DNA from: Longimicrobiales bacterium
Lineage (GTDB): Bacteria > Gemmatimonadota > Gemmatimonadetes > Longimicrobiales > Gaopeijiaceae
NCBI GenBank assembly: GCA_965249725.1
Contig: CBDFMQ010000002.1
Coordinates: 1,280,001 to 1,344,000, forward strand
Reading direction: 5' to 3'
DNA: 64,000 nucleotides
The position numbers and the translations under genes are program-made. Below are positions 45,813 to 50,472 of this stretch, one piece after another (position 1 is the first letter of the stretch; each line of letters begins with the position of its first letter). The notes below the pieces were generated by a model. The model saw only the letters and a list, made by a program, of their open reading frames with translations, had not been told where the DNA came from and did no database searches.

Positions 45813-46937
45813 CTACGGCCGCCGTGACTCCATCAGCGCGATGAACTGATCGAAGAGGTACCGGCTGTCGTGGGGCCCCGGCGCCGCCTCTGGATGGTAC
45901 TGGACGGCGAAGACCGGCCGCTCCCGATGGGCCACGCCCTCTACGGTGCCGTCGTAAAGATTGACGTGTGTGAGTCGCAGATCCGGCGCCCCGGGAATCT
46001 CGTCGCCGTCGCCGAGGGCCACGGCAAATCCATGGTTCTGAGAGGTGATCTCCACGGTATCGGTGTCGAGATTGCGTACCGGGTGGTTCCCCCCGTGATG
46101 TCCGAAGGGGAGCTTGTAGGTCTTGGCACCGAACGCCTGAGAGATGAGCTGGTGGCCGAGGCAGATCCCGAACACGGGGACATCGTTCCCGGACAGCTCG
46201 AGGATCGCGGCCTCTGCCCGCTCGACGGCAGCGGGGTCACCGGGTCCGTTGGATACGAACATCCCGTCGGGACGTTCGGCCAGAATGTCCTCCAACGAGG
46301 TCTCGGCGGGAATCACCGTGACGCGGCAACCTCCCTCAGACAGAATCTTCGGCGAGTTTGCCTTGACGCCGAAGTCGTAGGCCAACACATGGAAGCGTTC
46401 CTCCCCGACCGCCTCCACCACATAGGGCTCGTCCGTGGAGACACCACAGGCGAGGTCGAGACCCTCCATACGGGGGTGCGCGAGCACGCTTTCGAGCAGC
46501 GTCGCCTCGTCCGTCTCGGCGGGCGCGATGGCTCCTCGCATGGCTCCCTCCGACCGGATGTGTCGGGTGAGCGCACGGGTGTCTATCTCCGCGATCCCCA
46601 CCACGTCGTTGGCCGTGAGGTAGTCCTCCAGCGCCCCCGTCGCCCGCCAGGACGAGTGTTGCGGTGGCAACTCACGCACCACGAAGCCGGTGACCTTCGG
46701 ACCTTCTGACTCCCGGTCCTCGTCGTTCACCCCGTAGTTGCCGATCAACGGATACGTCATGACGACGTGCTGACCGGAATAAGACGGATCCGTGAGGATC
46801 TCCTGATATCCGGTCATCGAGGTGTTGAAGACCACCTCCCCCAGAGAGGGTCCTGAAGCGCCGAAGCCGAGGCCGTCGAAACGCCGTCCATCTTCGAGTA
46901 GAAGGTACGCGGGTTCGCGTGGACCGGTGCTCGCCAC
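45813..46937 (-). CDS. carA: Carbamoyl-phosphate synthase small subunit
   Basis: GEVVFNTSMTGYQE, GICLGHQ, SQNHGF, QYHPEA.PGPHD. Confidence 0.96.
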   Translation of the reverse strand: MASTGPREPAYLLLEDGRRFDGLGFGASGPSLGEVVFNTSMTGYQEILTDPSYSGQHVVMTYPLIGNYGVNDEDRESEGPKVTGFVVRELPPQHSSWRATGALEDYLTANDVVGIAEIDTRALTRHIRSEGAMRGAIAPAETDEATLLESVLAHPRMEGLDLACGVSTDEPYVVEAVGEERFHVLAYDFGVKANSPKILSEGGCRVTVIPAETSLEDILAERPDGMFVSNGPGDPAAVERAEAAILELSGNDVPVFGICLGHQLISQAFGAKTYKLPFGHHGGNHPVRNLDTDTVEITSQNHGFAVALGDGDEIPGAPDLRLTHVNLYDGTVEGVAHRERPVFAVQYHPEAAPGPHDSRYLFDQFIALMESRRP

Positions 46938-47125
46938 CAGGCAGATTCCTAGTCTTGGGTGGTGCCGCCAGAAGCCTCCGACGGCCGGCGGAATCTAGAG
47001 CGGGACGGAGGCGAGTCAAGCACTGGTGTCACCCGTTCCGCCCCTCCTCTCCTCACCCTACCTTTCTCCCGACCCGCCGGGGTTCCCGTAAGCGAAGTTC
47101 CTACAAGAGAAGAAGACGAGTTGAA

Positions 47126-47695
47126 ATGACCGACGCGCCCGAGATCTCCATTTACGCCGACGAGTCGTGCCTCGGCAACCAGTTCCAGCACCGTGCCAAT
47201 CCGGGAGGTGCCGGGGGGCTGGTAGAGTACTGGTCGGGAGGCGAGTGGGTGCGTCGCGACTACTGGGTCTCCGAAGCGGACACGACGAACAACCGCATGG
47301 CCCTCAGGAGCGCCATCGAGGCCCTGACCTTGATGCGAAAGCGCCCGTGCAACGTCCGTTTCATATCCGACAGCCAGTATCTGGTCAAAGGAATGACGGA
47401 GTGGCTCAGGGGGTGGAAGGCCCGGGGTTGGAAGCGAAAGGGGGGCGAGATCGGCAACTTGGAACTCTGGCAGGAGCTCGATCGCATCGCCTCGAAGCAC
47501 GACGTGACCTGGAGTTGGGTCCGCGGACACGACGGTCATGTCCAGAACGAATACGCCAACCACCTCGCCACCCGAGCGGCCGCGGAGCGGACGGCCTCCG
47601 GAGGATTGGTGGAGAGCGAGTACCAGGTCTGGCTGGAGGGGCAGCGCGACAAGGGCCGCTATCTCGACTACTTCGAGCACGCCCCGCCCGACTGA
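47126..47695 (+). CDS. rnhA: Ribonuclease HI
   Basis: IYADESC, NPGG, TTNNRM, SDSQY, WKARGWK, N.ELWQ, WVRGH, NE.AN.LA. Confidence 0.92.
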   Translation: MTDAPEISIYADESCLGNQFQHRANPGGAGGLVEYWSGGEWVRRDYWVSEADTTNNRMALRSAIEALTLMRKRPCNVRFISDSQYLVKGMTEWLRGWKARGWKRKGGEIGNLELWQELDRIASKHDVTWSWVRGHDGHVQNEYANHLATRAAAERTASGGLVESEYQVWLEGQRDKGRYLDYFEHAPPD

Positions 47696-47726
47696 TCGCT
47701 CCCACGCTCAGACAAACATCTGGGGC

Positions 47727-47767
47727 AAAAAAAAGAAGCCCTCGGTGCGGCAAGCCGCCCCGAGGGC
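47727..47767 (-). terminator. Intrinsic terminator for a minus-strand transcript
   Basis: GCCCUCGG-GGCGGCUUGCCGCA-CCGAGGGC followed by UUCUUUUUUUU. The U-tract exists only in the minus orientation. Confidence 0.85.
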
Positions 47768-48075
47768 CTCTAATTCGTTGGTAGAAGCTTCGTCTCGTTT
47801 GGAGACCCGCCCATCTTCCAGATCGCCTTGCGGCTCACTTTCAGTCGGGCAGCTAACTCAGCTTCCCTTCTCCCGTCGTCGCGCGGTCAGCAACTTCGGG
47901 TCCTCCGAGCTCCGGAGGGTTCAGCAGAGACCAACGACTCCTCTGCCGGCTCACCGAGGTCCAACCCCCAGTTCGCTTCCACCGCTACGGCGTCCCGTCC
48001 GATGAAACACGTTTCTCGATCCGCATGAAGGGATGACCAACGCCATCGATTCAGCGTACCACATCGGAAACGCAC
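47727..48075 (-). ncRNA. Candidate ~350-nt structured non-coding RNA, class not recognised
   Basis: Own promoter and terminator, no credible ORF with RBS, many nested complementary segments and a GNRA hairpin. Confidence 0.65.
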
Positions 48076-48079
48076 GACC

Positions 48080-48108
48080 AGTATGGGCGGGCCGAGCCCA
48101 CGCGTCAA
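48080..48108 (-). promoter_or_regulatory. Sigma70-type promoter TTGACG-N17-CATACT
   Basis: -35 at 48108-48103, -10 at 48085-48080, 17-nt spacer, AT-rich upstream DNA. Confidence 0.7.
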
Positions 48109-48316
48109 GCTTCTCGGCCCATCTCATTCCAGAAACTTGCATTATCCCCTAACTCATTGTCATATCAAGGTTTAAGGAACGTCTAGAGACGTCGGTATTC
48201 TCTCCCGAATCGAACGTAAACAGATTGATCTTCTCGGCATGTGTGAGGAACCACGGGCCAGATCGGTTGGCTGAATTCGAAAAAATGGCGGAGCCTGCCT
48301 AGGACTTCCAAGACCT

Positions 48317-49036
48317 TCAAAGAGCCTCGATGGAGGGCTCATTTGTTGGCCCGCCAACACGAATTCGCCGCCCAAAGGCGCTTGCGAAGACATCGCGAAC
48401 GACAGCGGCGACTTCGCCAACCCGAATCGGACGGCCGGCCTCTTGCGAAAGCGAGGTGACCGAACGGTCGGCGATGCCGCACGGCACGATGGTCTCGTAG
48501 TAGGAGAGGTCGCTGTCGACGTTGAGTGCGAAGCCGTGAGAGGTGATCCACCCGGAGGACACGCGGACGCCGATGGCGGCAACCTTGCGGTCCTCGACCC
48601 AAACGCCCGTCAGCCCGGGCACGGTCTCTCCCTGAACTCCGAAGCGAGCCATGGCGGTGATGAGCATGGTCTCCAGATCTCGCAGGTAGCGGAGCAGGTC
48701 TCGGCGGTCGGGCTTGAGATCGAGGATCGGGTAGCCCACGAGCTGGCCCGGCCCATGGTACGTGACGTCCCCTCCCCTTCCCGCCTCGTAGAGCTCGAGG
48801 TCGAGCTCCTCCCTACGAGTGGCGTCGGCCAAAACGTGTTCGGGATGGGATCCTGTTCCCAGGGTGATCACGTGGGGGTGCTCCAGAAGGAGCAGTTGGT
48901 CGGGCACCTCGCCGGCGCGGCGGCGGGCCACCAAATCGGTTTGGAGTGCCAGGGCCTCTCCGTACGGGACGAGCCCGAGATCCCGTACCTCGAGTACCTC
49001 AAGTTCCTTGAGCTCTGGCGCGTCACCCGGGGACAC
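48317..49036 (-). CDS. lipB: Lipoyl(octanoyl) transferase
   Basis: LLEHPHVITLG, RGGDVTYHGPGQLVGYPI, KVAAIG, HGFALN, IVPCG. Confidence 0.95.
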   Translation of the reverse strand: MSPGDAPELKELEVLEVRDLGLVPYGEALALQTDLVARRRAGEVPDQLLLLEHPHVITLGTGSHPEHVLADATRREELDLELYEAGRGGDVTYHGPGQLVGYPILDLKPDRRDLLRYLRDLETMLITAMARFGVQGETVPGLTGVWVEDRKVAAIGVRVSSGWITSHGFALNVDSDLSYYETIVPCGIADRSVTSLSQEAGRPIRVGEVAAVVRDVFASAFGRRIRVGGPTNEPSIEAL

Positions 49037-50472
49037 TAGGCGTCCTCTGGGAAGTCCTCCAGCAGGGCCTTCAGTTCAGAGAGGAACCTCGCTGCGTCTG
49101 CGCCATCCACAATTCGGTGATCGTACCCCAGAGAGAAGAGCGATCGCTTCCGGATGGCGATGACGTCCGTGCCGGTGACCGGATCCTCCACCACCACGGT
49201 TCGCTTCTCGATCGCACCGGTGCCGAGGATCGCTGCGGTCCCCTTGGGAATAACGGGCATCCCCACCAGCGTACCGAGTACCCCGGGGTTCGTGATGGAG
49301 AATGTGGCTCCCTGAATCTCGGACGGGTTGAGCTGCCGACCCCGAGCCCGCTCTGCCAGGTCGATGATCTTCTTGCCGATTCCGACCAGGCTCAGATCAT
49401 CCGTGTCGTGGATGACCGGAACGATGAGGCCGGGATCGAGATCCACGGCCATCCCGATGTTCACGCTTCCACGTTGGATGATGTTGTTCCCGGACACGGT
49501 GCCGTTCACATAAGGGAAGCTCCGCAACAGACGCGAGCACGCCCAGGCCACGAAGGCCGTGTAGCTGACCCGAGCGCCCTGCTCCGCCCACTTCGCCTTG
49601 TTCGCGGCACGAATGCGGTCCACTCGTGAAAAGTCGATCTCGATGAACGAGTGCACGTGCGGAGCCACCCGCTTGGCCATGACCATGTGCTCCGCCGTGA
49701 GCCGACGGATCTTGTCCATGGGCTCGACCTGGTCGCCTTCGCGGACCGGGAACTCGGGGTGCTGTACCTCGCCGTAGAAGGCGGTCCAAAGATCGGACGG
49801 GGCCACCGAGGCGGCCGGATGCACGGGGGCAGCCGGCTTTGCCGGAGCGGCTGCCGGCGCCGCCACCGGGGCGGGAGCCGCAGGCTGTGCCGGCGATCCC
49901 CCACCTTCGATGTAGTCGAGGATGTCCTGCTTCGTGACCCTACCGGCGTGGCCGGTGCCCGCCACGTCGCCGATGGCGATTCCGTGCTCCTCGGCGATTC
50001 GCCGAACCACCGGAGTGGACTTCGTCCGCAGGCGCTCCTCGGCCGACTGCTCGCCCGCATCCTCGGCCCCACCGTGGGCCGGTGTGGTCGCGGCGGGCGC
50101 AGCAGCGGGTGCGCCGGTCGGAGCGGCCGGCTCTGCCGGGGTCTCGACGACTGGGGGCGCCTCCGGACCCGAATCGGCGACCTCGACCGGTGTGGACGCG
50201 GCGGACACGGTGGGCACGGTGGGTGCACCGCCCTCGGTGTCGATGAACGCCACGACCGTGCCCACCTCAACGGTCTCGCCCTCCTGGACCTTGACCTCCA
50301 CGAGGGTTCCCGACTGGGGTGAGGGAATCTCGGCGTCCACCTTGTCGGTCGAAATCTCCAGGATCGGCTCGTCTCGCTCGACCGTGTCGCCGACACTCTT
50401 CAGCCACTTCGATACCGTGCCTTCGGCGATGGACTCGCCCATCTGCGGCATGGGAACCTCGATGCGGGCCAC
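49036..50472 (-). CDS. 2-oxoacid dehydrogenase E2 (dihydrolipoamide acyltransferase)
   Basis: One lipoyl domain (STDKV), E3-binding domain GTG.AGRVTKQD, catalytic DHRIVDG. Confidence 0.93.
   Translation of the reverse strand: MARIEVPMPQMGESIAEGTVSKWLKSVGDTVERDEPILEISTDKVDAEIPSPQSGTLVEVKVQEGETVEVGTVVAFIDTEGGAPTVPTVSAASTPVEVADSGPEAPPVVETPAEPAAPTGAPAAAPAATTPAHGGAEDAGEQSAEERLRTKSTPVVRRIAEEHGIAIGDVAGTGHAGRVTKQDILDYIEGGGSPAQPAAPAPVAAPAAAPAKPAAPVHPAASVAPSDLWTAFYGEVQHPEFPVREGDQVEPMDKIRRLTAEHMVMAKRVAPHVHSFIEIDFSRVDRIRAANKAKWAEQGARVSYTAFVAWACSRLLRSFPYVNGTVSGNNIIQRGSVNIGMAVDLDPGLIVPVIHDTDDLSLVGIGKKIIDLAERARGRQLNPSEIQGATFSITNPGVLGTLVGMPVIPKGTAAILGTGAIEKRTVVVEDPVTGTDVIAIRKRSLFSLGYDHRIVDGADAARFLSELKALLEDFPEDA

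Follow-up and report, generated by a model that had tools for sequence, protein, structure and literature searches.

What kind of gene, if any, lies in the spacer between lipB and rnhA in the Longimicrobiales genome studied here? In the stretch of DNA that we analysed (64,000 nt of contig CBDFMQ010000002.1, phylum Gemmatimonadota; hereafter the window), lipB on the minus strand (48317–49036) and the convergent rnhA on the plus strand (ending at 47695) are separated by 621 nt. Pfam assigned a lipoyl ligase domain to the first and an RNase H domain to the second, in agreement with a preliminary description of the locus. That description had also proposed that the minus strand of the spacer encodes an undescribed, independently transcribed large non-coding RNA (ncRNA). 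Our analysis supports this proposal. The absence of an Rfam match, covariation among homologues, the promoter, the gene context and the presence of the stretch in RNA libraries all point to an ncRNA gene at window 48073–47727, minus strand. We give odds of roughly three in four that the gene encodes a genuine ncRNA, structured and independent, which belongs to a new family and works as a folded RNA. The family is conserved across several taxonomic families of one class of Gemmatimonadota, and it is not tied to any single downstream gene. New large structured classes of bacterial RNA are rare, and past ones have led to new ribonucleoproteins (RNPs), guide RNAs and RNA-only assemblies. The Gemmatimonadota are common in soils and sediments and have barely been studied at the bench.

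Sequence matches, fold and covariation

We searched positions 46500–49500 against Rfam 15 (4227 models) at E <= 1 and found no family match. The sole alignment in this region was terminator-like, to ctRNA_p42d, and scored 22.7 bits against a cut-off of 50. The same library at E <= 0.1 gave just one unrelated sub-threshold match in 12 diverse homologous loci, and this match lay outside the RNA. The element had been described as lacking the hallmarks of tmRNA, RNase P, signal recognition particle (SRP) and 6S RNAs, and the searches agree. RF00010, RF00023 and RF00169 had no match at this locus. RNase P RNA, tmRNA and SRP RNA are encoded elsewhere in the genome, with scores of 261.6, 177.2 and 39.7 bits, the last against a cut-off of 40. 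The 6S model RF00013 had no match in the window region, nor in the whole genome at either E <= 0.001 or E <= 10. A literature search, whose coverage excluded most subscription journals and bioRxiv supplements, found no description of such an RNA, and an earlier description is possible. The term "Gemmatimonad" did not turn up in PMC5737381 or in preprint 10.64898/2026.10.21.760802, and a cluster table in the latter could still include the RNA. To us the element appears to represent a new bacterial RNA class, one that matches no catalogued family.

Positions in the RNA are numbered so that RNA position p corresponds to window position 48074 − p. Position 1 (48073) was inferred from promoter spacing and from where conservation begins. 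The fold comprises a variable 5' hairpin domain, five serial hairpins (P4–P8), a purine-rich joiner, a variable domain 2, a heptamer and the terminator (Table 1). A long-range pseudoknot joins the P6 loop to the heptamer about 150 nt downstream, enclosing P7, P8 and domain 2.

Table 1. Features of the RNA gene, in window coordinates.
Feature	RNA positions	Window	Strand	Basis
-35 element TTGACG		48103..48108	-	site scan and conservation
-10 element CATACT		48080..48085	-	site scan and conservation
5' hairpin domain P1-P2-P3	1-64	48010..48073	-	pairing on 17-sequence alignment
P4 hairpin, conserved GACG loop	68-96	47978..48006	-	covariation
P5 hairpin, tandem G.A/A.G, YUUGGA loop	98-125	47949..47976	-	covariation
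P6 hairpin, 11-nt loop	127-151	47923..47947	-	covariation
P7 hairpin, loop around AGCU	156-172	47902..47918	-	covariation
P8 hairpin, 5 bp, 7-nt loop containing GACCG	180-196	47878..47894	-	covariation
Purine-rich joiner (GAAGGG) and variable domain 2 (P9-P12)	domain 2: ~208-291	47783..47870	-	comparison by eye
Pseudoknot 3' strand ACCAACG	292-298	47776..47782	-	partner 47936-47930 (positions 138-144)
Intrinsic terminator, GC-rich hairpin and U8 tract		47727..47768	-	minimum free energy fold

Covariation among the collected homologues was strong. On an alignment of 17 sequences, 78.6% of the cells of 96 pairs were paired, compared with 71.4 ± 0.5% in shuffles (0/500 as high), and both sides had changed in 60 pairs compared with 37.1 in shuffles; slid controls gave 37–44%. 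The signal was clearer on 46 sequences that included three other taxonomic families. There, 87.9% of the cells of 46 core pairs were paired (73.8% when shuffled, 0/500 as high) and both-side changes occurred in 45 of the 46 pairs, with slid controls at 36–45%.

All five serial hairpins contributed to this result. On the 46 sequences, P4 (90.4% and 96.7% of cells paired) had both-side changes in 11/11 pairs and P5 (77.4%) in 10/10, while every pair was compensatory in P6 (93.5%, 7/7), P7 (78.3%, 6/6) and P8 (94.2%, 5/5). The G.A pairs of P5 are replaced by Watson–Crick pairs in some genera. No stretch of the family is more conserved than the P6 loop, in which the 5' strand of the pseudoknot lies. 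The pseudoknot itself was 97.5% paired on 17 sequences and 93.8% paired on 46, where 6/7 pairs were compensatory, and independent double changes were found in other families. In the 5' domain, P1 was 82.7% paired with 6 compensatory pairs, and P2 and P3 together were 80.7% paired (17 sequences). P3 consists of 6 bp capped by a GNNG loop. Outside the window's family, the whole 5' domain has shrunk to a short hairpin.

Part of the fold proposed earlier did not survive this comparison. The preliminary description had nested its by-eye helices into a three-way junction, and we rejected this architecture in favor of the hairpin series with a pseudoknot. Its long-range helices (the closing helix 48042–48036/47782–47776, CCCUUC/GAAGGG and a long irregular stem) were together 77.5% paired, no better than the 77.0% of shuffles, 165/500 of which were as high. 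In 9/17 sequences, one of the closing-helix pairs was unpaired. The heptamer is present twice, and the P3 copy at 48042–48036 was likely picked for this reason; the true partner of 47782–47776 is 47936–47930 in the P6 loop. The hairpins GCAGAG/CUCUGC (P6) and CCUCCG/CGGAGG (P7) had been drawn correctly and are supported by covariation. The stems of domain 2 were also judged right, although pair counts on MAFFT columns were poor (35–55%, 17 sequences) and compensatory changes were seen by eye only. In the window's subgroup, this domain has expanded from a stem into a four-way junction with three mini-hairpins, whereas in most genera it is a single hairpin plus a conserved CCAAG-like stretch.

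Several other candidates were set aside. RNAalifold, which does not model pseudoknots, paired the P6 loop with the 3' strand at the expense of the P6 stem, and its consensus was replaced by our hand-built model. Pairing of the 5' part to P5, also from RNAalifold, showed almost no compensatory change. By eye, a K-turn in P5 lacked the 3-nt bulge, a T-loop in the P5 loop lacked conservation of the final base, and a Shine–Dalgarno-like GAGG in P6 was followed by no conserved start codon. A scan of all column pairs for further helices returned only the known ones and a possible pairing between the P6 loop and P8. The 5' part of the P6 loop (47930–47938) is identical to the 5' strand of P8 and could pair with the P8 3' strand (47878–47882). 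These five pairs were at least 80% paired across the 46 sequences. This may be an alternative conformer or a coincidence; we regard it as a by-product of the sequence similarity.

Promoter, terminator and gene context

The promoter named in the preliminary description, TTGACG-N17-CATACT (minus strand, 48108–48080), was borne out both by a site scan and by homologues. The region holds 2 such promoter-like sites, compared with 0.1 in shuffles. Among 100 unique upstream sequences (from 122 matches), the TTG at -35 to -33 was kept in 79–87%, the A at -11 in 85% and the T at -10 in 71%, with both elements at constant spacing from RNA position 1. Transcription would thus begin near 48073, from a sigma-70-type promoter belonging to the RNA itself. 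There is a second promoter-like site, TTGATA-N16-GATAAT (48141–48168, minus strand, 10/12 matches). Its TAAT core is kept in most homologues (aligned upstream regions L001–L018), about 55–60 nt upstream of the main -35 element. This site could be a second promoter or a binding site for a regulator.

The predicted intrinsic terminator with its U-tract was likewise recovered, as a hairpin and U8 tract in the minimum free energy (MFE) fold. The whole RNA folds at −159.8 kcal/mol (z = −3.84), and 0/100 shuffles were equally good. A simple terminator scan of the region missed the site at 47768–47727 because the stem has an internal mismatch. In homologues, a scan for perfect stems was positive in 19/100 and a fold-based search for a hairpin with a T-run was positive in 44/94; many homologues therefore have the hairpin but a weak or interrupted U-tract. 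The RNA would end at the terminator at 47727, or near 47775 if it is trimmed.

The spacer might instead contain a small protein-coding gene or simply the 3' untranslated region (UTR) of lipB. The earlier statement that it holds no open reading frame (ORF) is literally untrue, since 73-aa and 63-aa minus-strand ORFs overlap the region, and lipB lies upstream on the same strand in 15/24 loci. The substance of the statement stands, because neither ORF is conserved and 1-nt indels break both. The longest ORFs in 53 homologues varied from 0 to 103 aa and switched strands, close relatives were separated by 1-nt frameshifting indels, and the 73-aa ORF of the window begins within the -35 element. We found no conserved open frame. 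Also against this explanation, substitutions in the helices are compensatory, the promoter is conserved at constant spacing, and distant copies of the RNA are not beside lipB. We consider a coding gene or a UTR barely credible.

To describe the neighborhood, 144 flanking ORFs from 24 loci were compared with Pfam. lipB was upstream on the same strand in 15 of these loci and a convergent RNase H gene was downstream in 15, with both present in 13. The usual order is E2, lipB, RNA, rnhA (opposite strand) and carA. At seven loci, from other families or representing second copies, the neighbors were unrelated to this order and included genes for an ECF sigma factor, an SDR, a CBS protein, a beta-eliminating lyase with an AMP-binding enzyme, DUF4202, DinB and DUF72. 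Taken together, this pattern suggests a stand-alone gene in a stable neighborhood and not a regulator of one class of genes.

These data bear directly on whether the RNA is a cis-regulatory leader, that is, a riboswitch or attenuator with a terminator that would govern carA or another downstream gene. In most loci of the window's family, carA does lie downstream in the same orientation, and at locus L011 it follows directly with no rnhA between. The RNA does terminate in an intrinsic terminator, and several distant copies have a same-strand gene downstream (SDR, acyl-CoA synthetase-like, DUF4202, DUF72 or methyltransferase). However, the convergent rnhA separates the terminator from carA in 15/24 loci, and the genes downstream of the distant copies have no common function; no class of same-strand downstream gene recurred consistently. 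No Rfam riboswitch matched the window or the 12 homologues, and the covariation scan gave no alternative anti-terminator pairing. The preliminary description had already doubted a riboswitch leader, and the convergent rnhA and the unrelated neighbors at the seven distant loci bear this out; we judge such a role very unlikely.

One locus deserves separate mention. At L058 (genus g6), a small gene with a RelA/SpoT-like domain (about 2050–2320) sits between lipB and the RNA, and a TylF-type methyltransferase gene follows the RNA in place of rnhA. A closed genome that lacks the RNA, considered below, belongs to this same genus and retains the upstream region.

Distribution and RNA libraries

Homologues, which the preliminary description had proposed to collect, proved to be numerous. 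A DNA search placed the stretch in 18/61 related genomes. We built two covariance models from the homologues: R1 (17 sequences, positions 1–198, 61 pairs) and a core model, R2 (P4–P8, 39 pairs, 42 sequences). Within the window's family, R1 matched 87/151 genomes. R2 matched 91/151 genomes, 65/110 high-quality genomes and 60/81 genera. In a sample of the class, R1 was found in families f1 (9/32), f3 (4/4), f2 (1/3) and f8 (2/10), with 0 matches in families f4, f5, f6, f7 and f9. In a sample of the phylum, R2 was found in f1 (9/16), f3 (1/1), f8 (9/31) and f5 (4/71, only one of them strong), with 0/19 in genomes of three families of sister classes. The RNA occurs in three further families of the class besides the window's own. 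Weak R2 matches in one genus (23–36 bits) retained the P5-P6-P7 pattern and the conserved P6 loop; diverged forms therefore exist, and the R1 and R2 counts are lower bounds.

Most genomes carry one copy and a few carry two. The two-copy genomes include G042, G044, G331, G009, G099, G104, G106, G113 and G159. In G042, the copies (L065 and L072) are near-tandem, about 1.3 kb apart, beside an ECF sigma-factor gene.

A pattern scan of named genomes produced 101 stretches, of which 80 were examined. R1 scored at least 100 bits in 69 of these 80 loci, and all but three of the 69 carried titles of Gemmatimonadota, Gemmatimonadales, Gemmatimonadaceae or "Longimicrobiales". The three exceptions were one "uncultured bacterium" and two sponge metagenome-assembled genomes (MAGs) labelled Gammaproteobacteria. 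The contigs of the latter (L097 and L143) hold a full-scoring copy, at 115.7 bits, and these bins are probably mislabelled or mixed. The remaining 11/80 loci had no strong model match and were rejected as chance matches; their titles were Paraburkholderia, Nocardia, Dietzia, Rhodobacteraceae, Rhizobiales, Myxococcales, Solirubrobacteraceae, Flavobacteriales, two Actinomycetota and one proteobacterium.

The stretch, or part of it, occurs in 20 public sequencing runs. Six of these are RNA libraries, each containing a small share of the words of the stretch. We examined contigs of at least 85% likeness in four RNA runs, each of a separate study: one of salt marsh, two of sediments and one marine. 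Every such contig lay on 47756–48093, and one run alone had 705 contigs. The preliminary description had suggested looking in metatranscriptomes for a discrete minus-strand RNA; the contigs from four studies do lie on the RNA body, although they give no strand, ends or level. No contig in the four runs lay on 47600–47755 or 48094–48350, which is not evidence of discrete ends, as the flanks are less conserved and only relatives of at least 85% identity were included. Word depths reached about 1e6 summed in one run, but they pool contigs of many organisms and so are a poor guide to expression.

Contigs from three studies end at 47774–47784, directly after the 3' strand of the pseudoknot. A loose contig end at 47775 resembles what we take to be sequencing-adapter sequence, so that the insert presumably ended there. 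Both observations hint, though weakly, that the mature RNA may have lost the terminator hairpin. Three contig joints that skip 90–107 bases had short sides (21–25 letters) and low likeness, and were set aside; they probably derive from relatives whose domain 2 differs.

Mode of action and comparison with known RNAs

How might such an RNA act? Its own promoter, compact conserved fold, single-copy state and presence in RNA libraries suggest an RNA that would work in trans and in its folded form. Its likeliest role would be that of a protein-binding scaffold or decoy. We regard the case for this mode of action as evenly balanced.

Two other stand-alone roles have to be weighed beside it. The RNA could be a ribozyme, or could assemble by itself into a higher-order particle without a dedicated protein, a behavior reported for some large orphan RNAs of bacteria. 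Its complex fold with a long-range pseudoknot, the conserved unpaired GACG, UUGG and GACCG loops and purine-rich joiner, and the many contigs in one RNA library would fit, but no ribozyme or large-RNA family of Rfam 15 matched and no conserved processing site was evident. We think this quite unlikely. It could also be a base-pairing small-RNA regulator, or a sponge, that uses a conserved single-stranded stretch. The gene does stand alone with its own promoter and terminator, and both the purine-rich joiner and the CCAAG-like stretch of domain 2 are conserved and unpaired. Still, the RNA is far larger and more structured than typical base-pairing regulators, and the P6 loop, its most conserved stretch, is taken up by the internal pseudoknot. 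For a sponge of the CsrB/RsmZ type, the window copy does have GGA in several of its loops, but by eye on the 53-sequence alignment the positions of these loop motifs are not conserved across the family. We therefore hold base pairing or sponging to be decidedly improbable.

For a protein-binding RNA, the most specific candidate partner would be RNA polymerase, by analogy with 6S or Ms1, because the class appears to have lost canonical 6S. RF00013 matched 0/42 genomes of the class and 13/19 genomes in sister classes, where 6S sits between zapA and rny (order pheT, zapA, 6S, rny). The corresponding zapA–rny spacer of the window genome (L207 1355–1476) is 122 nt long and contains a terminator-like hairpin only. 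Even so, RNA polymerase is an unlikely partner on present evidence. A bolder reading, which we would rate as similarly doubtful, is that the class Gemmatimonadetes lost 6S and evolved an unrelated pseudoknotted RNA of about 330 nt as a global regulator of RNA polymerase, or else that the RNA represents a new RNP core or ribozyme class. If the former were true, it would be a second independent replacement of 6S after Ms1, with a wholly different fold.

A number of points weigh against a trans-acting folded RNA or its link to 6S. The mode of action is a matter of inference. Several distant copies have a same-strand gene downstream, where effects in cis are possible. About 40% of the genomes of the window's family had no match with R2, most genomes in the survey are MAGs, and R1 and R2 had a shortened calibration, which makes their E-values rough. 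Within a carrier genus, one closed genome (100% complete) keeps the conserved upstream region, yet its syntenic site contains no RNA even when the search filters are switched off; the RNA is therefore probably not essential. The evidence from RNA libraries consists of assembled contigs, and an RNA library can hold DNA. As for 6S, the argument rests on a single phylogenetic event. Nor are the two RNAs complementary genome by genome, since in family f5 6S was found in 0/28 genomes and the new RNA in 4/71. The fold is a series of local hairpins with a loop-to-3'-tail pseudoknot, unlike the 6S rod with its central bubble, and helices joining the 5' part to the 3' end were unsupported.

With these reservations, the RNA is widespread in its phylum, has a defined fold and occurs in RNA libraries of several habitats. 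The apparent lack of 6S in this lineage provides a concrete, testable hypothesis about its role. The covariance models and alignments would allow the RNA to be annotated in genomes and metatranscriptomes.

Among known systems, leaders of the riboswitch or attenuator type share with the new RNA a structured domain followed by an intrinsic terminator. The new RNA differs in having a convergent downstream gene in most loci, no consistent class of downstream gene and a conserved promoter of its own. 6S RNA (RF00013) is closer in several respects: both are stand-alone, usually single-copy genes with a housekeeping-type promoter, abundance is expected of both, and no 6S is detectable in the lineage carrying the new RNA. 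The two differ in that there is no match at the level of sequence or model, in size (about 300–350 nt compared with about 185 nt for 6S), and in location, the new RNA not being at the zapA–rny site of the sister classes.

Ms1 RNA of Actinobacteria is reportedly an abundant, structured RNA of about 300 nt from a lineage without canonical 6S, and is said to bind the core of RNA polymerase. It is a precedent for a lineage-specific substitute for 6S, but it has no evident homology to the window RNA, which has no Rfam match, and binding of RNA polymerase would here be by analogy only. Large orphan bacterial RNAs, for which we take OLE, raiA, ROOL, GOLLD and HEARO as the relevant examples, are RNAs whose function is unknown or has lately been clarified. 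The new RNA resembles them in being large, with many helices, pseudoknots and strong covariation, and in being restricted to one lineage. It differs from HEARO-type RNAs in having no associated protein genes at the 24 loci, and from the group as a whole in having no match in Rfam 15 and a different host phylum.

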